NCBI GenBank assembly: GCA_016194745.1
Contig: JACQBA010000013.1
Coordinates: 822-64,821, forward strand
Direction: 5' to 3'
Source: Elusimicrobiota bacterium
Lineage (GTDB): Bacteria; Elusimicrobiota; Elusimicrobia; UBA1565; JACRDR01
DNA length: 64,000 bases
Below are positions 27,279 to 48,657 of this stretch, in pieces; positions within the stretch are counted from its first letter, which is position 1, and the number at the start of each line of letters is the position of its first letter. The position numbers and the translations under genes were made by a program. Under the pieces are notes generated by a model, which saw only the letters and a program-made list of their open reading frames with translations, was not told the DNA's origin and did not search any database.

Positions 27279-28115
27279 CTAGGCGCTGAGGACGAGGAGG
27301 CCGAAGACGGCAGGCAGATAGGCCAAGGACGCGAGGAAGAGCCGCCGCGTGTCGGTCCGCTCGAGCGTCCAGCTCGCCCGCATCCCGAGCGCGAGGAACG
27401 CGCTTCCGAGGGCCAAGGCGCCGAAGCCGTAGCCGACGCCGGCCAGTCCGCACAGCATCGGCATCAGGCTCGCGAGCAGCAGGCCGAAGCTGTGGATGGC
27501 GATCTGCGCGGCCGTCCCGCCGCCGGCCGGATCGACCACGGGCATGACGCGGAAACCGGCGCGCGCGTAGTCCTCCTTATGAAGCCAGAACATCGCGAGA
27601 AAATGCGGGATCTGCCACAAGAACTGGATCGCGAAGAGCGCCCAGGCGGGTGCCTCCGCGGCGCCCGTCACGGCCGCCCAGCCCACGACGGGCGGGAGCG
27701 CACCAGCCACGGCCCCGAACCAGGTGCTGAGCGGCGTGCGGGGCTTGAGCGGGGTATAGAACGCGAGGTAGCAGACCATCGTCGCGGCGGTGTAGCCGCA
27801 CGCCGCGAACGTCGCCTTCCACGCGAGGATGCCGAGGCCGGCCGCGCCGCACGCCGCGCCGAAGGCGAGGGCGGCCGTCGGATCGATCTTCCCGGCCGGC
27901 AGCGGGCGCCCGCTCGTGCGCTTCATCAACGCGTCCCGGTCGCGCTCCATGACCTGGTTGAGCGTCCCGGTCGAGCACGAGGCGAGGACGACGCCGAGGA
28001 TCATCCAGGCCGCTCCGGAGGCGCTGCGGCCCCCCGCGAGCCAGTAGCCGATGAAGGCGGTGACCGCGACCATGACGGCGATGCGCGGCTTGGTCAACTC
28101 CATGTACGTCCTCAC
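27279..28115 (-). CDS. ctaB: Protoheme IX farnesyltransferase (heme O synthase)
   Basis: MELTKPRIAV… UbiA-family CtaB/CyoE signature, multi-TM. Confidence 0.85.
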   Translation of the reverse strand: MRTYMELTKPRIAVMVAVTAFIGYWLAGGRSASGAAWMILGVVLASCSTGTLNQVMERDRDALMKRTSGRPLPAGKIDPTAALAFGAACGAAGLGILAWKATFAACGYTAATMVCYLAFYTPLKPRTPLSTWFGAVAGALPPVVGWAAVTGAAEAPAWALFAIQFLWQIPHFLAMFWLHKEDYARAGFRVMPVVDPAGGGTAAQIAIHSFGLLLASLMPMLCGLAGVGYGFGALALGSAFLALGMRASWTLERTDTRRLFLASLAYLPAVFGLLVLSA

Positions 28116-29008
28116 CTAAGCCTCCACGCGCGCAGCGTCCAGAGGACCATCGTTCCGAGGAGCGCGGCGCCGACGACGACGTGCGCGGTCGGCAGGATGA
28201 CGCGCCAGAACTCGAGCGGCGGCAGGCCGCTCATCTTCGCGGCCAGCGCCGCGACGCCGAGGGCAAGCTGCAGAAAGAGAAGGCCGATCGCGGCTCCGGT
28301 GATGCGCGTCATCGCCGGCTCCGACGCGCAGGCGCCCGCGACTCCCGAGACCGCCCAGCCGACGGCCAGCATGACGCCCGCCGCCCAGGCCGCGTGATGC
28401 GGGAGGGTCGAGCCCCCGTGACGATAGATCGCGCCGAGCAGGAGCTGGAGAAAGATCGCGCCGACCGCCCAGGCGCCGCGCGCCCACAACGGTCCGATGC
28501 CCCGCGAGCGCGCCGCTAAGAACCACGGGGACGTCGCCTGCGCCTGGACGAGCAGAAGGCTGAAGACGGTCTGCGCCAGGCACGCGTGGGAAACCGACAC
28601 CATGCGCGGCAGCCGGTAGAGGACCGTGACGCCCCCGAGGACCGCCTGGACGACGATCCCGAAGGCCGCGGCCGCGGCGACCCGCTTCATCCAGCGCCGG
28701 TCGTCGGCGGCGAGGACCCACCCGGACAGGGCGAAGGTGAGGAGCCCGACCGTGCCCGCGATCATCCGGTGGCCGTGCTCGAACAAGACGCCGCCGACCA
28801 TCCTCGGGAAGTACTGCCCGAACGACAGCGGCCAGTCCGGCACGGCGAGCGAGGAGCCCGTCGACGTGACGAGCCCGCCCGCGAACAGGAGCAGGAACGC
28901 GCAGCCGGCGGTCAGCTGGGCGAAACGATGGAGCGCTCCGGCGCCCGTCCCGCGGGGCGCCTGCGCGGCGCGAGGGAGCGCGGGCGCGGGAGCCGACGCG
29001 ACGATCAC
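28112..29008 (-). CDS. ctaA: Heme A synthase CtaA/COX15
   Basis: …SSLAVPDWPL…HR…; multi-TM; start placed at GTG (GTGA overlap with upstream tiny ORF) rather than Arg-rich track start at 29191. Confidence 0.75.
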   Translation of the reverse strand: MIVASAPAPALPRAAQAPRGTGAGALHRFAQLTAGCAFLLLFAGGLVTSTGSSLAVPDWPLSFGQYFPRMVGGVLFEHGHRMIAGTVGLLTFALSGWVLAADDRRWMKRVAAAAAFGIVVQAVLGGVTVLYRLPRMVSVSHACLAQTVFSLLLVQAQATSPWFLAARSRGIGPLWARGAWAVGAIFLQLLLGAIYRHGGSTLPHHAAWAAGVMLAVGWAVSGVAGACASEPAMTRITGAAIGLLFLQLALGVAALAAKMSGLPPLEFWRVILPTAHVVVGAALLGTMVLWTLRAWRLR

Positions 29009-29262
29009 GAGAGTCTCTCGGCGGCGGGCTCCGCGGCGGGGACGACGAGGTCGTCCTTGCGCGCGGACTCGATCTGATAGACGAAGTAGACGAGACCTGC
29101 GAGCATGCTGAACACGGACCCGACGAGCACGAGCGTTCCGACGAGATACGCCATCGGCAGGCGGCTCGTGCCGTCGGAGGCTCCGAAGCACACCGGGCAG
29201 GCCTGTGCGCGCTGCGCCAAGGCCGCCGACAAGGACGCCGCGACCGCCAGTAGCCGCGTCAT
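29005..29262 (-). CDS. Small (85 aa) membrane/periplasmic protein with CPVC motif, candidate oxidase assembly or Cu/redox factor
   Basis: MTRLLAVAASLSAALAQRAQACPVCFGASDG… then TM AYLVGTLVLVGSVFSMLAGLVYFVY; ATGA overlap with upstream ORF, GTGA with ctaA. Confidence 0.4.
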   Translation of the reverse strand: MTRLLAVAASLSAALAQRAQACPVCFGASDGTSRLPMAYLVGTLVLVGSVFSMLAGLVYFVYQIESARKDDLVVPAAEPAAERLS

Positions 29263-29441
29263 GCGCCGGGGCTCTTCGTCTTTCGGATGAACCAGGTCAG
29301 GTAGGCGGCGGCGGAGAGGAAGCAGGCGCCCGAAGCCGCGGCCAGACCCTGCGACGCGCGCTGCCCCGCCCAGACGGCCAGGAAGCCGAAGCACGCCAGC
29401 GTGGCGAGAATGAGAAGGATGTGAAAGGCTCGGAGTGACAT
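29259..29441 (-). CDS. Small (60 aa) 2-TM protein within oxidase operon
   Basis: ILLILATLACFGFLAVWA and ACFLSAAAYLTWFI hydrophobic helices. Confidence 0.4.
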   Translation of the reverse strand: MSLRAFHILLILATLACFGFLAVWAGQRASQGLAAASGACFLSAAAYLTWFIRKTKSPGA

Positions 29442-29470
29442 GACGGCGACGGCGCGACCGGCGTGCGGAA

Positions 29471-29932
29471 CTAGTGCGCCGACTTCTTGGCTCCCGCCGG
29501 CTTCTTGGACTTAGCCGGCTTCTTCGTCTCCGCGGGCGCCTCGTGGGCCGCCGGCGTGGCGGCCTCCTCGTGATGCGCCTCTCCCGCGGCTTGCGGCAGG
29601 ACGGACCCGACGGCCATCGGCTGCCGGTTCTTTTCCGTCTCGACGGCGTCCGTTATTGGGAGCAGGAAGAGCACAGCCATGAAGAAAACAGTCAGTCCCA
29701 GGAATCCGTAGATCAACGTCCGCTCGCCCTTCAAGTGCATGAAGAACGCTGCGACCAGCGACGCCTTCACGGTCGCGATCATCAGGCCGATCGTGATGCC
29801 AAGCATCTTCGGCAGCTCGAGGTACGACACGAGCACGGTCGCCGCCGTAAGGACGAGCAGCGCGCCGAAAATGATGAAGTACATCTTGACGTCGGGAGCG
29901 TGGTGCGCCGCGGCTTTGTTGGAGGATGTCAT
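29471..29932 (-). CDS. Cytochrome c oxidase subunit IV (prokaryotic COX4-like) with Lys/Ala-rich C-terminal tail
   Basis: 3 TM; HLKGE motif; position after ctaE. Confidence 0.6.
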   Translation of the reverse strand: MTSSNKAAAHHAPDVKMYFIIFGALLVLTAATVLVSYLELPKMLGITIGLMIATVKASLVAAFFMHLKGERTLIYGFLGLTVFFMAVLFLLPITDAVETEKNRQPMAVGSVLPQAAGEAHHEEAATPAAHEAPAETKKPAKSKKPAGAKKSAH

Positions 29933-29942
29933 TTGATCTCGC

Positions 29943-30536
29943 TCACAGGAGATACAGCGCCGGGAACAGGAAGATCCAGACGATGTCGACGAAGTGCCAA
30001 TACAATCCGCCGTACTCGACCCTGCCGACGAACAGCTCGTGGTCCCAGTTGTCCTTCGCCCAGTACGAGAGCCACGCGAAGTAGGCGATGCCGAGGATCA
30101 CGTGGAGGCCGTGCAGACCCGTCGTCGTGAAGTAGACGGCGAAGAAGATGCTCGTCGAGGGGAAGTGATGGTGCGTGAATTTGTGCCCGTACTCGAAGCT
30201 CTTGACCACGAGGAAGGCGCAAGCGAGCAGGATCGTGATCCAGAGGTAGGCGTTGAACTTCGCCTTGTCGCGCTCGCAGGCCGCGGCGTACGCCAGCACG
30301 ACGGTGACGCTCGAGGTGATGAGGATGACCGTGTTGAGCGCCGCGAGAGGCACGTTGAGCTCCTCCCAGCCGCGGGGCCACGAGGGCGCCGACATCCGAA
30401 GCACGATGTAGCTCGTGAACAAGGTCGCGAACAGCATGACTTCGGACGTGAGGAACAGCCACACGCCCAGCTTACCGTTGGGGATTCCCGTCGTCGTCTT
30501 GGACGGGCCGAGGGCCTGCGTCGCCGTCGCGCTCAT
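29943..30536 (-). CDS. ctaE: Cytochrome c oxidase subunit III
   Basis: COX3 signature …GLHGLHVILG…WHFVDIVWIFLF; start at second Met to abut ctaD stop. Confidence 0.85.
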   Translation of the reverse strand: MSATATQALGPSKTTTGIPNGKLGVWLFLTSEVMLFATLFTSYIVLRMSAPSWPRGWEELNVPLAALNTVILITSSVTVVLAYAAACERDKAKFNAYLWITILLACAFLVVKSFEYGHKFTHHHFPSTSIFFAVYFTTTGLHGLHVILGIAYFAWLSYWAKDNWDHELFVGRVEYGGLYWHFVDIVWIFLFPALYLL

Positions 30537-32263
30537 GCCTTCACCTCCGCCACGTGCTGCGGAACCCACGCCGCCTTCTTGCCGACGTTGTATTCATAGG
30601 GCCCGCGGTACACCTTCGGGGGCTTCTCGAAGTTGCCGTGCGGCGGCGGCGACGGACACGCCCATTCGAGCGTGGTCGCCTCCCACGGGTTGTCCCCCAC
30701 CTTCTCCCCGTGCCAGATGCTGCGGAAGAAGTTCCAGATGAACGGGAGCTGCGCGAGGAAGAGGAGCCAGGCGAAGACCGAGCTGACGACGTTGAGCGGC
30801 TGGGTCGTCAGGTTGTGGAGCTGCGCGGTCGGATCGTAGAGGCGGCGCTGCTGGCCGGCCAAGCCCGTGATGAACATCGGGAAGAAGATCCCGTTCATGC
30901 ATACGATCGTCGTCCAGAAGTGGAGCTTGCCCAGACCCTCGCTCATCTTCCGGCCGAACCACTTCGGGAACCAGTGGTAGACGCCGGCCATGAGGGCGAT
31001 GATGGAGCCCGTGACCACCACGTAGTGGAAGTGGCCGATCACGTAGTAGGTGTCGTGGAGGTAGATGTCGGTGACCGTGATGCCGAGCGGCAGGCCGGTC
31101 AGCCCGCCGATGCCGAACATCGGCAGGAAGGCGAGCGCGAAGAGCATCGCCGTCGTGAATCGGATCGAGCCGCCCTTCAGCGAATAGACGAGGCAGGTCA
31201 GCACCGCGACCGACGGGACCGAGATGATCATCGTCGTGACCAGGAAGAAGTTGCCCAGCGACGCGCTCATGCCGCTCAGGAACATGTGGTGCGCCCACAC
31301 GACGAAGGACATGCCCCCGATGAACATCATCGAGCCGACGAGCTCCTTGTAGCCGAAGAGAGGCTTGCGCGTGTTGTTGGCGATGATCTCCGCGCAGATG
31401 CCCATCGCCGGAAGGATCAGCACGTACACCTCGGGATGCGCGAGGAACCAGAAGAGGTGCTGCCACAGGAGCGGCTGCCCTCCGCCCGAGACCTTGAGCG
31501 CCTCGCCGTTGACCACGAGCCCCGCCGGCAGGTAGAAGCTCGTGCCCGCCACGCGGTCCATCAGCTGCAGGATCGACGCGGCCTCGAGAGGCGGGAACGC
31601 GAGGAGGAGCAGCACCGCCGTCACGAATTGCGCCCACACGAAGATGGGCATGCGCATGAGGCTCATGCCCTCGGCGCGCATGTTCAGCGTCGTCACGAGG
31701 AAGTTGATCGACCCGAGCAGGGAGGAGGTGATGATGAGTACCATCGCCAAAAGCCACACGGTCTGCCCGGGGTTGATGATCGACAGCGGAGGATACGACG
31801 TCCAGCCGGATTGCGCCGCGCCGCCGGGCATGATGAAGGAGGACAGCATCAGGAGTCCCCCCGGCAGGTAGATCCAGTACGACATCATGTTCAGCCGCGG
31901 GAACGCCATGTCCGGCGCGCCGATCTGGAGCGGCAGCACGTAGTTGCCGAACGCGGCGACGCCGAGCGGCACGACGCCGAGGAAGATCATGATCGTGCCG
32001 TGCATCGCGCCGAGCTGGTTGTAGAGCTCGGGGGTGACGACGCCCCCGGTCGAGCCCAGGATCAGGTTCCCGATGAACGGGATCGGCTGGTCGGGGTACG
32101 CCAGCTGCCAGCGCAGCACCATGATCAGGATGAACCCGAAGAGCAGGAAGAGCAGCGACGTGATCAGGTACTGGAGCCCGATGACCTTGTGGTCGACCGA
32201 GAACACGTACTTGCTGATGAAATCGTCCGGGCCGTGGCCGTGGTGGGAATCGTGATGGGTCAT
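30533..32263 (-). CDS. ctaD: Cytochrome c oxidase subunit I
   Basis: 12-TM COX1 with …WFFGHPEVY-like (WFLAHPEVYVLILPAMG) and HH heme/CuB ligands. Confidence 0.9.
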   Translation of the reverse strand: MTHHDSHHGHGPDDFISKYVFSVDHKVIGLQYLITSLLFLLFGFILIMVLRWQLAYPDQPIPFIGNLILGSTGGVVTPELYNQLGAMHGTIMIFLGVVPLGVAAFGNYVLPLQIGAPDMAFPRLNMMSYWIYLPGGLLMLSSFIMPGGAAQSGWTSYPPLSIINPGQTVWLLAMVLIITSSLLGSINFLVTTLNMRAEGMSLMRMPIFVWAQFVTAVLLLLAFPPLEAASILQLMDRVAGTSFYLPAGLVVNGEALKVSGGGQPLLWQHLFWFLAHPEVYVLILPAMGICAEIIANNTRKPLFGYKELVGSMMFIGGMSFVVWAHHMFLSGMSASLGNFFLVTTMIISVPSVAVLTCLVYSLKGGSIRFTTAMLFALAFLPMFGIGGLTGLPLGITVTDIYLHDTYYVIGHFHYVVVTGSIIALMAGVYHWFPKWFGRKMSEGLGKLHFWTTIVCMNGIFFPMFITGLAGQQRRLYDPTAQLHNLTTQPLNVVSSVFAWLLFLAQLPFIWNFFRSIWHGEKVGDNPWEATTLEWACPSPPPHGNFEKPPKVYRGPYEYNVGKKAAWVPQHVAEVKA

Positions 32264-32264
32264 A

Positions 32265-33017
32265 TTAGTAGGGTTGGGTCTGGGGGTGCTGCGCCGCCAG
32301 CCACTTCTCGTACTCCTCCGGCGTGTGCACGAAGACGTCGGCGCGCATGATGGAGTGCGCGATGCCGCAGAGCTGGGCGCAGCCGATCTCGAACTTCCCG
32401 GTGAGCGTCGGCTCGAACCACACCGGGATCTTCATGCCCGGCATGGCGTCCTGCTTGACGCGGAACTCCGGGATGAAGAGGCTGTGGATGACGTCCTTGG
32501 AGCTGAGGTAGACGACCGTCGGCTTGCCGAGCGGGATGTGCAGCTCGTTGACCGTCACGACGTCGTCCTTGCCGGCGTCGTCCGCCGCGTCGAGGCCGGC
32601 CGGGTTCTGCGCGTCGACCAAGGCGGCGTTCGAGCGGCCGAACTTGGCGTCGGCGCCCGGGTAGTGGACGGTCCACGCGAACTGCTCGGCCACGATCTCG
32701 ACGACGTTGGATTTGCCCTCGGGCGGGACCGTCATCTTGATGCGGCTCCACGCGGGGAGCGCGTAAAACAGGATCAGGCAGATCTCGATGCCGAGCACGA
32801 TCAAGTCCGGGATCATCGACTGCAGCGTGCCGGTCTCCCAATGCTCGGAGGGGACGCCGGGGCGGGCCCGGTAGCGAACGAGCAGATAGACGAAGAAGAC
32901 CGACCAGAGGATGAAGATGGCGAACATGATCCCATGGATCGCATAGATCCCGAGATCGATCTCCTTTGCGAACGTCGAGGCTTGGATGGGCAAGCCCCAG
33001 CCGTAGTTGCCGTTCAA
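32265..33017 (-). CDS. coxB: Cytochrome c oxidase subunit II (CuA; no fused cytochrome c domain)
   Basis: CuA site H…CAQLCGIAHSIM; 2 N-terminal TM. Confidence 0.85.
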   Translation of the reverse strand: MNGNYGWGLPIQASTFAKEIDLGIYAIHGIMFAIFILWSVFFVYLLVRYRARPGVPSEHWETGTLQSMIPDLIVLGIEICLILFYALPAWSRIKMTVPPEGKSNVVEIVAEQFAWTVHYPGADAKFGRSNAALVDAQNPAGLDAADDAGKDDVVTVNELHIPLGKPTVVYLSSKDVIHSLFIPEFRVKQDAMPGMKIPVWFEPTLTGKFEIGCAQLCGIAHSIMRADVFVHTPEEYEKWLAAQHPQTQPY

Positions 33018-33028
33018 GTGTGTTCTCT

Positions 33029-33754
33029 CTATTTCGGGGCGTGGAACTTCATTTCGACCTTGGCGCCTTGCGCACCGACCGTGACGTCTTGTGAGACCGT
33101 TCCGAGCTTGTCATGCCACGCTTCGAGCGTGTACTTCCCGGGCGCGAGGCCCTTGATCTCGAAGGTGCCGTCCTTGCCGCTGACGGCGTAAAACGGGTTC
33201 TCGACCACGCCGACGAAGGCCGTCATCCAGGGATGCACGTTGCACTTGAGCGTCCGCATGATGTCGGGCTTGGTGAACTTCTTCTCGATCGCCTTGACGC
33301 TGGCCGGCATCGCGGCGTTGAACTCGGGCAGCGCGTTGACGTTGTGCATCGTCGGGTCGGAGTTGCGGATCTCGACGGTCTGGCCGACCATCGCGCCGAC
33401 GACGCGGGGCATATACCAGCACCCGCGCTGATCCAGGACGACCTTCTCCGCCGGCGTCGGGAACCTCTTGCCGTCGAGGCCCGACTTGACGCGGACGAAG
33501 GTCTCGGAGAGCCCGCCGGAGGCGTCCACCACGATGGGCTCGTAGCGAAACCCTTTCGGGTGCTGCTGCCGGCACTTCGGGTCCGACGACATCGGGAGCG
33601 TCGACGCGGCGGGCGCCTGGCCCTGGAACGAGACGCGTCCCGTCAGCGCGGCGGCCGACTTGGCGGCGGGCCTGTCCGGACCGGCGGCAAGCGCTGCGCA
33701 GGGCGCTAGAGCGACAAGAAGCAGCGAAATCTGAAGCGAATATCCGTGGTGCAT
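33029..33754 (-). CDS. Secreted cupredoxin-like (type-1 Cu) protein with C-terminal CarboxypepD_reg-like beta-sandwich; candidate electron donor to the oxidase
   Basis: Signal peptide MHHGYSLQISLLLVALAPCAALAAG; candidate Cu ligands …TMHNV… and CNVHPWM; C-term GTFEIKGLAPGKYTLEAW. Confidence 0.55.
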   Translation of the reverse strand: MHHGYSLQISLLLVALAPCAALAAGPDRPAAKSAAALTGRVSFQGQAPAASTLPMSSDPKCRQQHPKGFRYEPIVVDASGGLSETFVRVKSGLDGKRFPTPAEKVVLDQRGCWYMPRVVGAMVGQTVEIRNSDPTMHNVNALPEFNAAMPASVKAIEKKFTKPDIMRTLKCNVHPWMTAFVGVVENPFYAVSGKDGTFEIKGLAPGKYTLEAWHDKLGTVSQDVTVGAQGAKVEMKFHAPK

Positions 33755-33819
33755 CCGGCGCAAGACTATCAATTTCTCCCGTGCCAATGCAACAACGGCC
33801 GTCAATTCGGGTTCACCTT

Positions 33820-33856: not shown

Positions 33857-34729
33857 TTATTCTGGAAGCTCAGGGAACTGCTGGGACAGGTCCCCGTCCG
33901 CCTTGGGAGCGACCGCGGCCGCGGGCGCGGCCTTGGGCGCCGTCCCCTTCTTGAGCCAATGGAGCCACGCGCTCTCGAACTCCCCGATCGAGCGATGGCC
34001 GTAGTTCGTGTTCAGGGCCTGATCGACGGTCGCGCCTTGGCTCAGCTCGCGGCAGAACCGGTCGAACTTCCACCGCCGCTGCCCCTCGCGGAGGAAGCGC
34101 ACCACGGAGCCGGCCTGGGCGTACCATTCGGCGCTCAACGTACTGAGCCGCGGGTCCATGAACTGCGCCATCGGGATCACCGTGCGCACGTCCCGCGGGG
34201 GCGCCTCATTGGGACGCTTGAGCTTGGTCATGATCTCCTTCTCCATCAAGACGGCGAGGCCTTCGTTGAGCCAGCGTGGAGGCTCGCGGCTCTCGGACGC
34301 CTCAAAGAAGAACGCCCGGAAGAAAAGATGCGTCAACTCGTGCGCCACCGTGGCGAACGGCACGCCCTCGTAGGTGGCGAAGATCCACTTCTTGATCTTC
34401 CCCCCCATGAACAGCGCGATGCCGCCCGACCCCCGCGGCGGCCGAAACCGCCCCTGCTCGTAGGCCGCCTTGTCCTCGTAGAGGAAGAACTCGACCTTCT
34501 CGGACTGGAAGCGGTTGCTCAGCGACCAGAACTCGTGGCGCAGCAGCCGGTGGACGTTCTCGATGTCGGAGATGAACCGCGAATGGATGCGCCGCGTCTG
34601 ATGGTGGAAGTTGTAATGCGGCGTGATGCGCGCGCCCCAGGATTCCTCCGCATGGGAATCCGCGCGCGCGCCGGACGCCGAGAGCGAGGCCGCCGCCAGA
34701 AGCGCCCCGAGGACCGGGGCCCGAGACAT
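33857..34729 (-). CDS. Secreted zinc metallopeptidase (HExxH…NEGLA, Peptidase_MA_2-like)
   Basis: Signal peptide MSRAPVLGALLAAASLSASGARA; AHELTHLFF and …WLNEGLAVLME; 1-nt stop/start overlap (TGATG) with upstream ATPase. Confidence 0.6.
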   Translation of the reverse strand: MSRAPVLGALLAAASLSASGARADSHAEESWGARITPHYNFHHQTRRIHSRFISDIENVHRLLRHEFWSLSNRFQSEKVEFFLYEDKAAYEQGRFRPPRGSGGIALFMGGKIKKWIFATYEGVPFATVAHELTHLFFRAFFFEASESREPPRWLNEGLAVLMEKEIMTKLKRPNEAPPRDVRTVIPMAQFMDPRLSTLSAEWYAQAGSVVRFLREGQRRWKFDRFCRELSQGATVDQALNTNYGHRSIGEFESAWLHWLKKGTAPKAAPAAAVAPKADGDLSQQFPELPE

Positions 34730-35919
34730 CAGCCGGCCTTGGGCGGCTTCGGCATCGACCCCGGCCAGCCGGGCGTTCCGCGCGCGTCCGTCCCGCCGCC
34801 GCCGGCATCCGCCTCCGGGGCCTTCTCGGGCTCCTCGGGCTTGGTAAGGCCTTTGACGTCGATGTCCGGCCGCGCGATGGCCTGCGGCTTCTCCTTCTGC
34901 TTGTGCGGCTCGAACTTCCGGATCTCCATCTCCTTGATGATGATCTTGCCCGACGGGTCGACGTCGAAGGAGGCGGACTTCGCCTTGTTGTCCCGGAGCT
35001 CCGCCAGCGACGGCGCGAACAGGTCGAACAGGATGCGCTCGAGCTCGCGGATGCCGAACTTGCTGATCTTCGCGTTCGCCAAGAGAGCCTGCATGAGGAT
35101 CTGCGGCGCGACGAAGTTCACCTCTAGACCGAACTCCTTCGCCAGCCTCTCGATCTTCATGATCGCGATCTCGGCGATGATCATGCCCTCGAGCGGCTTG
35201 AACTGATAGACCTTGTCGATGCGGCCCAGGATCTCGGGCCGGAAGATCTTGTTCTCCGCGAGGAGCATCTTGATCGCGTTCAAGATCTCGAGATAGTCGG
35301 TCATGCCGGCCGTCACCTTGGCCACTTCTTCGGCGATCGCGTTGCTCGTCAAGACGACGATGCATTGCGTGTAGTCGGCCGTCTTGCCGGTGCTCTGCTC
35401 GGTCAAGCGCCCGTCGCCGAGGAGCTGGAGCAGCAGGTCGAAGACCTGCGGGTGCGCCTTCTCGATCTCGTCGAACAAAATGAGGCGCTTGGGGTTGGCG
35501 AAGATGGGCCGGGTCAGCTGTCCGCCCGTCTCCGCGCCCTTGTAGCCCGAGGAGGCGCCGGTCAAGCGCGCCTTGGACATCTCGCCGCTCGCGAGTTCCG
35601 AGCAGTCGAAGCGGATCATGTCCTTCTCGTTCTCGAAGAGGAACTCGGTCAAGGCCTTCGCGAGCTCCGTCTTTCCGGTGCCGGTGGGGCCGAGGAGCAG
35701 GAGGCTGCAGATTGGCTTGGTGCGCTCCTTCTTCTTCCAGCTCAGGCGCACCAGCTTGGCGACGTCCTTGATGATCTCGTCCTGCCCGCGGATGCGGGTG
35801 TAGAGATAGTCCAAGAGCTTGGTCTCGTCGACCTCTTTGCTCTTGTCGTCCAGGGTCGACTCCTCCATCATGAACTTGAGCCGGTCCCAGTCCGTCATCT
35901 TGTGAAGTTTATCAGCCAT
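34729..35919 (-). CDS. Stand-alone ClpB-NBD2-type AAA+ ATPase (AAA_2 family), soluble
   Basis: Walker A LLLLGPTGTGKTELAKAL; pore-loop GYKGAETGG; Walker B RLILFDEIEKAH; sensor/small domain FRPEILGRIDKVYQF; perfect SD AAGGAGG 5 nt upstream. Confidence 0.75.
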   Translation of the reverse strand: MADKLHKMTDWDRLKFMMEESTLDDKSKEVDETKLLDYLYTRIRGQDEIIKDVAKLVRLSWKKKERTKPICSLLLLGPTGTGKTELAKALTEFLFENEKDMIRFDCSELASGEMSKARLTGASSGYKGAETGGQLTRPIFANPKRLILFDEIEKAHPQVFDLLLQLLGDGRLTEQSTGKTADYTQCIVVLTSNAIAEEVAKVTAGMTDYLEILNAIKMLLAENKIFRPEILGRIDKVYQFKPLEGMIIAEIAIMKIERLAKEFGLEVNFVAPQILMQALLANAKISKFGIRELERILFDLFAPSLAELRDNKAKSASFDVDPSGKIIIKEMEIRKFEPHKQKEKPQAIARPDIDVKGLTKPEEPEKAPEADAGGGGTDARGTPGWPGSMPKPPKAG

Positions 35920-35933
35920 ACCGCCTCCTTGAA

Positions 35934-37139
35934 CTATCTCGAACGGGTCTTCCGCTGGCCCTTCTTAGGCGCGTCCGTCGACGCCTTTTCCGACGCGCCG
36001 CCTTGTTCCGGTATCTTGAGACCGACGTTGTCCGATCCTCGCAGCACGACTTCCTTTCCGGTCCCCCGCTTGAAGGCGATGGGCCCCAACGACAGGTGCG
36101 AAAAGACGCTCTTGCGGATGTCGGCCGTGCTCGGCCCGGCGAACCCGACGCCGCACTGGCTGTTCTCAATGTTGACCTGCTCCAAATAGACCGCGCCCCC
36201 GTCGACGAGCAGGCCGCATCCGCGGTTGTCGGTGATGCCCGTCTTCCCGAGCCTCGCCTCCGCGCCGGAGTTGACCACGACCGCCGCCCGTGCGTTCTTG
36301 GCGAGGGTCCCGTCGGTGATGTGGACCTTGGCGAAGCGGCTCGCCTCGATCGCGCTCCCTTCCTCGCTCTGGATGTCGGTGCGCTCGAGGACCAGCTTGA
36401 CGTTCGAGCCGGCCGCGAGTATCGCCGAGGACTTGGACGCGATCTGCGTCCGGTACATGCGCGACTCCGATTTCCCCTCGACGGACAGTCCCCGCTTGAC
36501 GTCCATCATGACGTCGGTGGCGTCGAGATCGGCGTCTTGGATGCGCAGCCCGTAGCCGGGCGCCCGCACGTGCGTCTTCTGCAGCGAGATCGAGCCGCCC
36601 GTCGCGACGACGACCCAGGAGCTCTCGTCGCCCGCGTTGGAGAGAGTGATGTTCCTAAACGAGACGCGGCCCTTGAGCACCTCGATCGTCTTGGGGCCCT
36701 GAGAGGTGATCCAGACGTCCTCGGGAGAGGCGCCGCTGCCTTCGATCGTCACGGACTTGCTCAGCGTGATGGCCTCGTCGTAGATCCCGGGGCGCACCGC
36801 GATGACGTCGCCGTCCTTGGCGTTGGCGATCGCCAGCGGAAGGTTCGCGACGTCCGCGCCCTGGGCCATATTCCGATCGACGGTCCAGCGGCCGGCGATC
36901 TTCGACGAGATGATCTCGTTGACCTTCTTGGACGCGTTCTCGACGGCGGGATCGAGCTTGGTGTGGAGGAACCCGAAGGTCCAGCTGCGGCCTTTCACGA
37001 ACTTCACCTGCAGCCACTCGTGGCAGAAGAAGCCGGAGGCGCAGAGGAGCAGGATGAGCACTCGAACCCAGACGTCGTCCAGGATGTAGAGGCCCTCGGC
37101 CCGGTTGTCGAGAGACGCGGCTGAGGTTTCGTCGCTCAT
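35934..37139 (-). CDS. TM-anchored right-handed beta-helix (PbH1/pectin-lyase-fold) repeat protein
   Basis: N-terminal signal-anchor LYILDDVWVRVLILLLCASGFF; repeated …GSxIxLxxTxI…NxGxG… beta-helix turns; ATGA overlap with upstream ATPase. Confidence 0.55.
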   Translation of the reverse strand: MSDETSAASLDNRAEGLYILDDVWVRVLILLLCASGFFCHEWLQVKFVKGRSWTFGFLHTKLDPAVENASKKVNEIISSKIAGRWTVDRNMAQGADVANLPLAIANAKDGDVIAVRPGIYDEAITLSKSVTIEGSGASPEDVWITSQGPKTIEVLKGRVSFRNITLSNAGDESSWVVVATGGSISLQKTHVRAPGYGLRIQDADLDATDVMMDVKRGLSVEGKSESRMYRTQIASKSSAILAAGSNVKLVLERTDIQSEEGSAIEASRFAKVHITDGTLAKNARAAVVVNSGAEARLGKTGITDNRGCGLLVDGGAVYLEQVNIENSQCGVGFAGPSTADIRKSVFSHLSLGPIAFKRGTGKEVVLRGSDNVGLKIPEQGGASEKASTDAPKKGQRKTRSR

Positions 37140-38260
37140 TGGGTGATCGTCTCGACTTGGAACTCGCCCGACACGGTGTCGAGCCCGAGTCGGACGCTCC
37201 TCGCGCCGCCCTTGCGCGCCGCCTCGATCACCGGCGCGGAGGACTCCTGGATGAGCGAGGCGATCTGGCGCACGCCGTAGTCCTGGAACTCCCGATTGCG
37301 CCGCACGGTGTCGACCAGCATCTCGGGAGAGGTATACGTGACGTCGATTCCATACTGCTTCCAATACTTGGAGATCTGGATGCAGGCCACCTCGGCCACC
37401 GTCATCGAGTTGAGGATGTCCATCAGAAAGATGTCCTCGAAGCGGACGAGCAGCGCCTTCTCGAAGCCTTCGCGCGCCATCGCGTCGCGCGCCTTCATCG
37501 TGCGCTTCATCGGCTCCTGCGTCTCCATCCAGATCGGCCGCAGGCGCTCGACCCCCGAGTTGCACGTCGCGAAGAACACCGTCGCGCCGAAGTGGGCGGT
37601 CTTCCCCGAGCTCTTCTCCGTGCACATGCCCCGGTCCAAGATGTCGTAGAAGCAATGCTTGACGTCGGTGTGCGCCTTCTCGAATTCGTCGAGGATGATC
37701 ACTCGATAGGGATTGTCGACGATGGGGCGCGTGAGGGACCCGCCGATCTCGTAGCCCTGGAATCCCGGCGGCGGCCCGAGCAAGGTGACGACGTCCTGCG
37801 GGCTCTTGTACTGGTTCATGCGGATGATCATGACCTCGCTCTTCGGGTAGAGCGCCTTGGCGACGAGCTCTCCGATGTAGGTCTTCCCCGTCCCGGTCGG
37901 GCCGACCAGCATGAAAGCGCCGAGGCTCTTCTTGTGGGAGGCGATCGTGATGTTCTGCTGGATCTTGGAGGCGATCCGGTCGATCACGTCGTCATGCCCG
38001 CGCAGGTTCTCCTTGAGCCACGGAACGTGCTTGGTGATGTCCATCTTCTGGAGCTGCTCGAAATCGATGACCGCCTTCGAGTCCTTCCGGCGCACCCGCT
38101 CGTGGCGTATCTGCACGATGCGGATAACGAGTCCGATGACCGCAAAGCAGAAAATGACCGGCATCGAATCCGGACTTTCCTTTTGCAGGCCGTGCAGCCC
38201 GGAAATGATGATGACCGCGGCCATCAGCAAGAACATCGGGCTGTTCGTCATGTTGCTCAT
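37136..38260 (-). CDS. Membrane-anchored stand-alone ClpB-NBD2-type AAA+ ATPase (two N-terminal TM helices)
   Basis: TMs MFLLMAAVIIISGL / VIFCFAVIGLVIRIV; Walker A MLVGPTGTGKTYIGELVAKAL; pore-loop GFQGYEIGG; Walker B RVIILDEFEKAH; paralogous to 34729..35919. Confidence 0.75.
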   Translation of the reverse strand: MSNMTNSPMFLLMAAVIIISGLHGLQKESPDSMPVIFCFAVIGLVIRIVQIRHERVRRKDSKAVIDFEQLQKMDITKHVPWLKENLRGHDDVIDRIASKIQQNITIASHKKSLGAFMLVGPTGTGKTYIGELVAKALYPKSEVMIIRMNQYKSPQDVVTLLGPPPGFQGYEIGGSLTRPIVDNPYRVIILDEFEKAHTDVKHCFYDILDRGMCTEKSSGKTAHFGATVFFATCNSGVERLRPIWMETQEPMKRTMKARDAMAREGFEKALLVRFEDIFLMDILNSMTVAEVACIQISKYWKQYGIDVTYTSPEMLVDTVRRNREFQDYGVRQIASLIQESSAPVIEAARKGGARSVRLGLDTVSGEFQVETITQ

Positions 38261-38347
38261 ATTCGATATGGCAATACCGTATTAGTATGTAGGGAAAAGG
38301 TTAAATTTTCAAGACATTCTGAGGGTATAAGGAAAGCCTCGTTCTCC
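38261..38347 (-). promoter_or_regulatory. AT-rich 87-bp intergenic region with sigma70-like elements (TTGAAA-17-CATACT) upstream of the membrane AAA+ ATPase
   Basis: Only markedly AT-rich spacer in this gene run; motif positions approximate. Confidence 0.3.
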
Positions 38348-38878
38348 TCAGGACGGCGGCGACGGAGGACCGTCGGTCGTCGGGTAGCCCTTCACGTCGC
38401 TTTTGATATCGATCGTGTAGCCCCAGTCCTTGTAGGGAGAGGAAGTCGTGCCCGGCTTGGCACCGTTCTTGCGCTTGGCGCACGCCGCGAACGTGCCGGT
38501 CTGGCCGAGGGAGCACTGGTCCGAAGTGCTGCTGGCCCCGTTGCAGGCGTAGAAATCGTAGCCCTTCGAATCGAAATTCCCGATGGCGAGGTACTTGCAT
38601 AGGATCAAGTTGCACGCGGTGTAGGACGTGCACGTCGTCCCGTCGCACGCGCACGACCCGGAGCAGGAACTCGTGAGCTGGCCCGTATTGTACTGCGGGT
38701 AATCCAAAGCGAACTGGCGGTTCGCCGCGCCGACCTGCTGCAGCGTCGAGATCGCGTCGTCGGCCTTGGATGTCTCCACGGATTTGGTGTACTGCGGGAT
38801 CGCCAGCGCGCCCAGGATCGCGATGATGAACACCACGACCATCAGCTCGATGAGCGTAAAGCCTTTATTTTTTCTCAT
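38348..38878 (-). CDS. Type IV pilin (prepilin with N-terminal cleavage/methylation motif), Cys-rich
   Basis: MRKNKGFTLIELMVVVFIIAILGALAIP class-III signal; 10 Cys in globular domain. Confidence 0.85.
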   Translation of the reverse strand: MRKNKGFTLIELMVVVFIIAILGALAIPQYTKSVETSKADDAISTLQQVGAANRQFALDYPQYNTGQLTSSCSGSCACDGTTCTSYTACNLILCKYLAIGNFDSKGYDFYACNGASSTSDQCSLGQTGTFAACAKRKNGAKPGTTSSPYKDWGYTIDIKSDVKGYPTTDGPPSPPS

Positions 38879-38935
38879 TTTTTTTCATGCTACCTTTCCA
38901 GTTTAACAGCCGTCTCCCACCCTGTCAATACTAGT
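38879..38935 (-). promoter_or_regulatory. Sigma70-like promoter for pilin gene: TTGACA-17-TAAACT, then GGAAAGG SD
   Basis: Minus-strand reading actagtaTTGACAgggtgggagacggctgtTAAACTggaaaggtagcatgaaaaaaaATG. Confidence 0.45.
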
Positions 38936-48006: not shown

Positions 48007-48657
48007 ATGAATTCCATCGCGCTAGCGTCGGCCCTTTCGCTTTTCGCCGCCCAGGGAGCCTCGGCCGCCGACGGCGCCAAGCGCAAGACGGTCCTGGCGA
48101 CGGTGATCGACGACAAGGGTGCTCCCGTCGAGGACGCCGTGGTCCACGTGGTGCTGCCGGGCACCGCCGCGTTCAAGCCGCCCTCCAAGGTCGCCGTGAT
48201 GGACCAAGTGGACCGCGACCTCGTCCCCCGCGTGCTGCCCGTCCTCGTCGGGACGGGGGTCACCTTTCCCAACAAGGACGACATCCACCACGAGCTCTAC
48301 TCCTTTTCCGCCGCCAAGAAGTTCGAGCTTCCGCTCTATAAGGGCAAGCCCGCCAAGCCCGTCGTCTTCGACAAGCCGGGCGTCGTGAAGTTGGGTTGCA
48401 ACATCCACGATTGGATGAGCGCCGTAATCGTCGTGCTCGACAACCCGTATTTCGCGAAGACGGACGCGACGGGGACGGCGCGCGTGCCGGTCCCGGCCGG
48501 CGCCGAGGCGACGCTCGCGGTCTACCACGACCGGGACAAGGGGACGGAGAAGGCGACCGAGACCGTCGTCAAGCTCGCGGGCGACCCCAAGGCGTCGTGG
48601 ACGCTGTCCCTCAAGAACAAGCCGAAGAAGATGCCGAAGGTCAGCTCCGAATACTGA
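48007..48657 (+). CDS. Secreted cupredoxin-like protein with CarboxypepD_reg-like C-terminus (paralog of 33029..33754)
   Basis: Signal peptide; …IHHELYSF… and GCNIHDWM candidate Cu ligands; C-term GTARVPVPAGAEATLAVYH. Confidence 0.55.
   Translation: MNSIALASALSLFAAQGASAADGAKRKTVLATVIDDKGAPVEDAVVHVVLPGTAAFKPPSKVAVMDQVDRDLVPRVLPVLVGTGVTFPNKDDIHHELYSFSAAKKFELPLYKGKPAKPVVFDKPGVVKLGCNIHDWMSAVIVVLDNPYFAKTDATGTARVPVPAGAEATLAVYHDRDKGTEKATETVVKLAGDPKASWTLSLKNKPKKMPKVSSEY

Follow-up and report, generated by a model that had tools for sequence, protein, structure and literature searches.

We describe a gene cassette on the minus strand of a 64-kb stretch of DNA (hereafter the window; GC about 65%) from a metagenome-assembled genome (MAG) of Elusimicrobia. 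Its core is a pair of stand-alone AAA+ ATPases of the Hsp100 D2 type, one membrane-anchored (AAA-1) and one soluble (AAA-2), together with a single-pass envelope protein, hereafter the partner, whose gene overlaps that of AAA-1. In most related loci a further small single-pass protein, X, precedes AAA-1. It is very likely that these genes form a conserved cassette and that their products work together; observed directly are its gene content and conservation, the coupling of the genes and the state of the motifs. The explanation that we favour for how they act, held tentatively and with somewhat less than even confidence, is a membrane-embedded two-ATPase remodelling machine that works without a protease, in which AAA-1 would be the platform and AAA-2 the threading motor. 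The cassette genes of the window are as follows:

37136..38260, minus strand: AAA-1, membrane-anchored stand-alone Hsp100 D2-type AAA+ ATPase (374 amino acids; Pfam AAA_2)
35934..37139, minus strand: partner, single-pass beta-helix protein (401 amino acids; Pfam Beta_helix)
34729..35919, minus strand: AAA-2, soluble stand-alone Hsp100 D2-type AAA+ ATPase (396 amino acids; Pfam AAA_2)

These three lie in a run of five consecutive minus-strand open reading frames (ORFs), in 5′ to 3′ order pilin-like protein, AAA-1, beta-helix partner, AAA-2 and Peptidase_MA_2 metallopeptidase. All five had been called in an earlier reading of this DNA made from its letters alone (the sequence-only reading), and their positions are confirmed. 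Related loci were gathered by homologue searches and by one scan of species-representative genomes, and were counted if they carried a full-length AAA-1 orthologue. Such distinct loci number 37, distributed over Elusimicrobiota, Verrucomicrobiota, Planctomycetota and Gemmatimonadota, and a divergent form of the cassette occurs beyond them in Bacteriovoracaceae (L038/L039). Identity among orthologues is 41-63% for AAA-1 (n=37) and 48-78% for AAA-2 (n=33), far above the only about 28-33% that separates the two families (28% between the two proteins of the window, E=9e-40), indicating that AAA-1 and AAA-2 are an ancient pair of paralogues that has been inherited together. Of the 32 loci in which 3.5 kb or more of sequence follows AAA-1, 29 contain AAA-2. 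The partner directly follows AAA-1 in 33 related loci, and in 24 of these the two genes share a 4-nt ATGA overlap, like that at 37136-37139 of the window between the AAA-1 stop and the partner start. The sequence-only reading had pointed to this coupling of AAA-1 with a transmembrane (TM) beta-helix protein, and the pairing proved to be strongly conserved across genomes, translational coupling included. In 28 of 36 loci X lies ahead of AAA-1, the two genes sharing 4 nt in, for example, L001 and L003. Verrucomicrobiota and many Elusimicrobiota have the order X, AAA-1, partner, AAA-2; in Planctomycetota and Gemmatimonadota AAA-2 comes first, followed by X, AAA-1 and the partner. The genes on either side of the cassette are ordinary metabolic ones that differ from genome to genome. 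The family is rare: among 1.8 billion representatives, about 6 clusters at 50% identity are more than 43% identical to the query, and some 10 further, more remote clusters have the same length.

Both ATPases match the Pfam family AAA_2 (PF07724, cut-off 27 bits), AAA-1 with 94.3 bits (E=1e-26) and AAA-2 with 137.8 bits (E=5e-40), and both align solely to the second nucleotide-binding domain (NBD2) of ClpB, ClpC, ClpA and ClpV. Against PDB sequences AAA-2 finds the D2 of ClpC/ClpB at 1e-48, its fold being assigned by sequence comparison only. For AAA-1, an AlphaFold2 model with a mean predicted local distance difference test score (pLDDT) of 83.7 has two helices (residues 8-28 and 33-59) followed by the AAA+ large and small domains; its best solved structures in a Foldseek search are the D2 of ClpC/ClpB/ClpA (E about 1e-19), and its TM-score against the isolated NBD2 of T. 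thermophilus ClpB (4lj7) is 0.79. NBD1, Clp_N, zinc-finger and I-domain are absent from both proteins, which bears out their earlier description as two stand-alone ClpB-NBD2-type ATPases. The motifs are located as follows:

37880-37903, minus strand: AAA-1 Walker A motif
37754-37765, minus strand: AAA-1 degenerate pore-loop motif GFQG, residues 166-169
37682-37696, minus strand: AAA-1 Walker B motif
AAA-1, minus strand: Arg finger R273 and sensor-2 R331 motifs
35887-35898, minus strand: AAA-2 invariant N-terminal MTDW motif
35668-35691, minus strand: AAA-2 Walker A motif
35536-35547, minus strand: AAA-2 pore-loop motif GYKG with Y126, at the ClpB Y653 position
35464-35478, minus strand: AAA-2 Walker B motif
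AAA-2, minus strand: Arg finger R233 and sensor-2 R291 motifs

Across 39 AAA-1 and 33 AAA-2 sequences, the Walker A Lys, Walker B Asp-Glu, sensor-1 Asn, Arg finger and sensor-2 Arg show little or no variation. Because the motifs for ATP hydrolysis are essentially invariant in both families, AAA-1 and AAA-2 both probably hydrolyse ATP; the sequence-only reading was right that Walker A/B, the sensors and the small domain are kept, the motifs being found in both proteins and the small domain in the AAA-1 model. Its further statement that both keep the pore-loop Tyr holds for AAA-2 and fails for AAA-1. In AAA-2 an aromatic residue occupies this position in 33 of 33 sequences (Tyr in 28, Phe in 5), whereas AAA-1 of the window carries Phe and its family is unconserved at the ClpB Y653 position (S11, Y5, M5 and others; n=37), with the entire pore loop deleted in the AAA-1 of Bacteriovoracaceae (L038/L039).

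The two proteins might be supposed to be fragments of an ordinary two-ring Clp/Hsp100 protein, either a split ClpB/ClpV or a mis-called ClpX/HslU. Genuine split ClpV genes do exist and served as a positive control: the ~365-residue AAA_2 proteins of Zixibacteria and Ignavibacteria lie directly after an NBD1 gene in clusters resembling the type VI secretion system. However, the 64-kb window holds no NBD1/Clp_N-like ORF (best BLAST E 0.55), which rules out a split ClpB/ClpV, and no adjacent NBD1 gene was found at the related loci. Moreover, NCBIfam scores fall far below the cut-offs for ClpV, ClpB, ClpA and ClpX (150 vs 885, 205 vs 1232), AAA-1 has a TM hairpin of its own, and both families are full-length and conserved at 330-390 residues. 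As for ClpX/HslU, the ClpX model matches AAA-2 only, with E=9e-4 and 18 bits vs a cut-off of 359, and there is no ClpP-docking loop. The fragment explanation is hence refuted and retains next to no credence, as the sequence-only reading had also held. The split ClpV arrangement itself was seen in ~22 loci (L045-L076, e.g. L065 6343-7800 and 7797-8897), as a ~485-residue gene with Clp_N and NBD1 followed by a ~365-residue AAA_2 gene and then by sheath-, Hcp-, VgrG-, gp25- and baseplate-like genes.

AAA-1 carries two hydrophobic N-terminal helices (residues 8-25 and 33-51), which together form a TM hairpin over residues 8-51 (nt 38108-38239); hydrophobicity and the AlphaFold2 model agree on it, as the sequence-only reading had proposed. 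Basic residues follow its second TM helix, and basic residues also precede the single TM helix of X. Because of this charge distribution, the AAA domains and the tail of X are placed in the cytoplasm, and the best explanation for AAA-1 is an FtsH-like topology with the N-terminus inside, a TM hairpin and a cytoplasmic AAA+ domain. A ClpP-docking loop ([ILMV]G[FLM] after sensor-1) was not found in 69 of 70 members of the AAA-1 and AAA-2 families, and no protease is encoded within the conserved unit of the cassette, for which reasons none enters the proposed mechanism. The AAA-2 of the window additionally has a P/E/K-rich C-terminal extension of ~55 residues (about nt 34900 down to 34732), ending at the peptidase start, one base into its start codon. 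This extension is peculiar to this genome and missing from 32 orthologues of 330-340 residues; it could be what is left of an X-like tail, or an artefact caused by an indel.

The partner of the window begins with a 'DDVW' motif and a TM helix (residues 21-39, nt 37023-37079) and continues as a right-handed beta-helix domain that matches Pfam Beta_helix (PF13229) at 1e-8. A word-index homologue search with this protein returned 2 matches only, and its AlphaFold2 model, built on a two-sequence alignment, is of low confidence (pLDDT 38). In the wider family the N-terminal '[DN]xW[FVM]Q' motif and the TM helix are conserved whichever outer domain follows. A Pfam census of 37 partners assigned Beta_helix to 24, Sel1 to 6 and PSII_BNR (YCF48/BNR propeller) to 2. 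This division between a constant anchor and changing outer domains is also seen within single loci carrying two or three tandem partner genes with Sel1 or beta-helix domains (L016 9122-16388; L021 3550-7160; L019 9101-11694; L091 8134-11787): their N-terminal anchors are near-identical and their outer domains diverged, the first 40 residues being 70-82% conserved vs 23-62% for the remainder. Most partners obey the positive-inside rule for an N-in/C-out orientation, and we infer a periplasmic location for the beta-helix domain of the window partner. X, where present, consists of a basic, Pro-rich tail of ~55 residues with a conserved Tyr-x-Pro, one TM helix and usually a ~150-residue periplasmic domain without a Pfam match. 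A cryptic, frameshifted X in the window, composed of the AAA-2 tail and the peptidase signal peptide, was considered and is unsupported, as the X N-terminal hidden Markov model (HMM) did not set it apart from composition-matched shuffles, among which it ranked 6th of 201.

In the tentatively favoured two-ATPase mechanism, AAA-1 would act as a membrane platform that binds the anchors of the partner and X inside the bilayer. AAA-2 would dock on AAA-1, as a mixed or a stacked ring, and, as the threading motor, pull on a cytoplasmic tail. This pulling would remodel or dislocate the envelope-facing single-pass proteins, or transmit force to them. The partner anchor is the constant element, and the outer domain (beta-helix, Sel1 repeats or BNR propeller) an interchangeable one. 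We infer the complex as such, the way in which the ATPases would share the work, and what the substrate would be.

Several observations weigh against this mechanism. The cytoplasmic N-terminus of the partner is only ~5-20 residues long, little for an AAA+ pore to take hold of. In the clade of the window (the window, L086, L087, L006, L008, L009 and L002) the charges around the partner anchor are inverted: the N-flank is acidic and the C-flank mildly basic, contrary both to the other 26 partners and to what the positive-inside rule predicts for N-in/C-out; because of this inverted bias in all seven loci, the topology of the window partner is uncertain. X was not found in the window, where a YxPxP-type X motif is absent from every frame, and in the closest relatives of the window it is cut down to tail and TM helix (66-105 residues). 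Three loci with sufficient flanking sequence (L012, L014 and L019) have no intact AAA-2, L019 keeping fragments only. All examples are uncultured MAGs, except possibly L039. Finally, if the partner were a stoichiometric subunit, its translational coupling to AAA-1 would be explained no less well than if it were a substrate.

This last point is what would be expected if the cassette were an ATP-driven mechanotransmission or assembly device, an explanation that we regard as unlikely. Here the AAA+ rings would shift the TM anchor of the partner and the outer domain would change conformation, with nothing being unfolded; the moved domain would bind or mature a ligand of the periplasm or outer membrane, or pass it on, in the manner of NosDFY, FtsEX and LolCDE or as an ATP-powered counterpart of TonB-ExbBD. 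The likeness to NosDFY lies in a periplasm-facing right-handed beta-helix of the NosD/CASH type that is genetically coupled to a cytoplasmic ATPase via a membrane component. In line with this, 17 of the 37 partners match the NosD Pfam family PF05048, and the N-terminal part of the window partner matches the NosD family at 2e-8. Many partners have a long Pro/Ala-rich linker after the anchor, and verrucomicrobial partners contain 10-16 Cys, features that fit a periplasm-spanning domain; the missing conserved pore-loop aromatic of AAA-1 points the same way. On the contrary, the canonical threading pore loop in every AAA-2 points to polypeptide translocation and not to rigid-body movement alone, and the swapping of unrelated outer folds speaks against a general single ligand or a NosD-like chemistry. 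NosD membership itself was rejected: scores are far below the cut-offs (TIGR04247, 33 bits vs 300; PF05048, 16.6 vs 23.6) and no nos genes lie nearby. NosDFY furthermore relies on an ABC-type (ATP-binding cassette) ATPase and its NosD has no conserved N-terminal TM anchor, whereas the partner of the cassette is replaced by Sel1 or BNR proteins in other lineages.

A bolder reading would be a bacterial retrotranslocation or trans-envelope pulling machine, similar to endoplasmic reticulum-associated degradation (ERAD) with Cdc48, which we consider highly doubtful. The outer solenoid or propeller domains (beta-helix, Sel1, BNR; cf. Hrd3/Sel1L) would capture a periplasmic client, the TM helices of AAA-1, partner and X would bundle into a passage across the inner membrane, and stacked or mixed AAA-1/AAA-2 rings would pull the polypeptide from the periplasm into the cytoplasm. 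Alternatively, force derived from ATP would be sent outward in place of the proton-motive TonB/Tol systems.

Comparison with known AAA+ machines places the favoured remodelling machine among several partial likenesses. FtsH and Msp1/ATAD1 have an N-terminal TM anchor (two helices in FtsH) and a cytoplasmic single AAA+ ring facing the membrane. Both belong to the classical AAA clade (PF00004), and FtsH carries an M41 protease domain as well as a pore loop with an aromatic residue. AAA-1 resembles them in the topology of its anchor and in its expected action on the cytoplasmic tails of membrane proteins, and differs by its Hsp100 D2/AAA_2 clade, the absence of a protease, its degenerate pore loop and the obligatorily co-encoded second ATPase. 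FtsH membership was accordingly rejected, as no Peptidase_M41 match was found, PF00004 gave a weak secondary match and the likeness is one of topology only. Pex1/Pex6 and the m-AAA protease (Yta10/Yta12) are similar in that paralogous ATPases are co-inherited, presumably act jointly at a membrane and combine active with degenerate elements. They belong to a different AAA clade and are tethered by a separate tail-anchored protein, or by TM helices of their own combined with a protease; in the cassette a hetero-oligomer is presumed. Torsins resemble AAA-1 as Hsp100-D2-related, single-ring, membrane-associated proteins without the canonical pore-loop aromatic. They have no Arg finger of their own and borrow it from LAP1/LULL1. 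The sequence-only reading had suggested a torsin-like logic, which does not hold: the Torsin family PF06309 scores 19.5 and 18.9 bits vs a cut-off of 27, the proteins' own Arg finger is invariant in both families, and torsins face the lumen of the endoplasmic reticulum, whereas the cassette ATPases are cytoplasmic. More generally, bacterial Hsp100 D2 modules are known as the second ring of ClpA/B/C/V, and single rings from metazoan Skd3, torsins and a few defence candidates. Skd3 (human CLPB) is, like the cassette ATPases, a single-tier, NBD2-only Hsp100 without NBD1, M-domain or ClpP; the cassette ATPases match CLPB at 1e-27 to 1e-28 in PDB sequence comparison, and Skd3 has been described as a stand-alone disaggregase (PMC7343390). 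It differs in that it has an ankyrin N-domain and is found in soluble form in the intermembrane space of mitochondria; the cassette, in turn, has a membrane hairpin on one paralogue, a second soluble paralogue, a linkage to envelope proteins and an AAA-1 without the pore-loop Tyr.

Bacterial stand-alone ClpB-like AAA_2 ATPases are also known from the defence candidates DolB and PDC-M37B, raising the question of an anti-phage or conflict system related to Dodola or PDC-M37, in which the variable outer domains would sense and the ATPases would be effectors or regulators. Both cassette ATPases match the PADLOC models PDC-M37B (1e-24 to 1e-30) and DolB (1e-14 to 1e-18), partner domains are variable and sometimes duplicated in tandem, the cassette sits in different genomic contexts across genomes, and DolB of Dodola has been described as carrying a ClpB domain (PMC11514479). 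Nevertheless, the matches span the shared AAA core only (about residues 30-220), and the models have no TM anchors in the matched regions. Among the beta-helix, Sel1 and BNR partners and X, no PADLOC model was matched, bar one stray low-complexity match. With no cognate DolA- or PDC-M37A-type protein among the cassette, X and the neighbours, membership in Dodola or PDC-M37 was rejected. The neighbours are housekeeping genes (cox, NAD synthesis, glycine cleavage, permeases) and not defence islands, and the conserved unit has no nuclease, toxin or other effector domain; a defence role is thus quite improbable. The cassette belongs to no known system with which it was compared, beyond the shared AAA_2 module.

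The sequence-only reading had proposed something different, namely two independent modules, each pairing one unfoldase with one exported cargo (the beta-helix protein and the HExxH peptidase), tied to a type IV pilin. The local features on which this model depends are as follows:

38900..38928, minus strand: promoter-like site upstream of the pilin gene, from a consensus scan
38348..38878, minus strand: pilin-like protein (176 amino acids; Pfam N_methyl 5e-10; GFTLIEL at 38843-38863)
38284..38312, minus strand: sigma-70-like promoter candidate TTGAAA-17-CATACT, within the 87 nt that separate the pilin gene from AAA-1
33857..34729, minus strand: exported Peptidase_MA_2 metallopeptidase (290 amino acids; PF13485 1e-11)
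34328-34342, minus strand: peptidase HELTH (HExxH), residues 130-134
34253-34267, minus strand: peptidase NEGLA with the downstream Glu ligand, residues 155-159

In this genome the stop and start codons do overlap at both junctions. At 34729 the AAA-2 stop and the peptidase start share one base in TGATG, so that the described coupling of AAA-2 to a signal-peptide HExxH MA-type peptidase is real; the peptidase scores 45.5 bits vs a cut-off of 32.4 for PF13485 and has a signal-peptide-like N-terminus, i.e., an export signal. However, a stop/start overlap alone is uninformative, because a Peptidase_MA_2 homologue in another genome (L090 3239-6864; 31% identity to that of the window) overlaps the stop of the unrelated uvrA by 4 nt. 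BLAST found no peptidase homologue in any of the 36 other related loci, and the proposed AAA_2-peptidase pairing across genomes is therefore absent, an outcome that the sequence-only reading had itself named as refuting the pairing. Only six relatives of the peptidase exceed 29% identity, the nearest at 31-41%; the three homologue neighbourhoods examined contain no AAA_2 gene and their genes are unrelated. AAA-2 is conserved beside AAA-1 and the partner, and not beside any particular downstream gene. Hence the notion of one unfoldase per cargo gives way to an ancient pair of paralogues co-inherited around one or several tandem partners that share an anchor.

The pilin fares no better. No homologue was found in the related loci by BLAST, and an N_methyl motif search covering about 8 kb on either side matched the window alone, so that the locus is not pilin-linked as a family and a role as an accessory module of type IV pili or the type II secretion system was rejected. 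The claim that the pilin gene has its own promoter agrees with the promoter-like site at 38928-38900, but the second site, before AAA-1, splits the pilin from the cassette, which therefore need not share a transcript with it. The candidate at 38284-38312 matches 9 of 12 consensus positions and is put forward on consensus match alone; the scan returned three sites in 6.6 kb vs 0.7 expected. With no homologues in related loci, peptidase relatives located elsewhere and a promoter-like site in between, the linkage of the pilin and that of AAA-2 with the peptidase are matters of local adjacency, and neither pilin nor peptidase is a core part of the cassette. The two-module model also has to accommodate the cytoplasmic location of both AAA domains, and we know of no precedent for an export role of the Hsp100 D2 fold without a channel partner, which we count against it. 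As far as the pilin and the peptidase family are concerned the model is already largely refuted, and as a whole it is very improbable.

One element of that model may survive in another form. Three sister loci of Elusimicrobia encode, after AAA-2, exported or TM proteins non-homologous to the peptidase (L006 5734-6696; L092 10191-10979 and 11019-11684; L086 9437-10528), and the 262-residue protein encoded after AAA-2 in L092 is no peptidase. Some of these proteins are Pro-rich-tailed, and that of L006 combines an X-type YAPPP motif with Sel1-like repeats. These cases hint at a second, variable envelope-protein slot after AAA-2, in which the peptidase may be the variable envelope partner of this genome.

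The flanks of the window are housekeeping-like. Downstream lies a cytochrome oxidase operon (ctaA-like, subunits IV, III, I and II; 28112-33805, minus strand), which is preceded by a 258-residue exported protein with a CarboxypepD_reg-like domain that has a paralogue of 32% identity at 48007-48657 on the plus strand; upstream are DUF2400, a FemAB-like acetyltransferase and an amidinotransferase-like gene. Elsewhere, Ser/Thr protein kinase genes occur within a few kb of the cassette in L001 (706-7122), L002 (12561-16259) and L086 (2657-4768), in one case as a fusion with Sel1 repeats and in another with a receiver domain, which may be coincidence. An 826-residue HSP70-like gene and a tetratricopeptide repeat gene lie just upstream of X in L001. 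In L039 (7809-10894), labelled as the culturable Bacteriovorax stolpii, a pore-loop-less AAA-1 is followed by a beta-helix-like partner and then AAA-2. AAA_2-type modules are also found inside giant proteins of 3,300-7,800 residues in the representative library (P0208, P0213, P0217, P0200 and P0210).

No published description of the cassette was found in the searchable full-text literature, in keeping with the earlier impression that it matches no described system; its rarity and the near-total uncultured status of its carriers probably explain this. Its distinguishing feature is a membrane-anchored D2-only ATPase that is obligatorily paired with a soluble D2-only paralogue and coupled to envelope proteins that share an anchor and swap their outer domains. 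For the AAA+ field, the cassette would offer a natural 'split two-tier' or heteromeric system built of D2 modules only. The lineages that carry it, including the Planctomycetes-Verrucomicrobia-Chlamydiae (PVC) superphylum, Elusimicrobia, Gemmatimonadota and the predatory Bacteriovoracaceae, have poorly understood envelopes, and if the division of labour proposed for AAA-1 and AAA-2 is true, it would represent a new architecture linking cytoplasmic ATP hydrolysis to envelope proteins.

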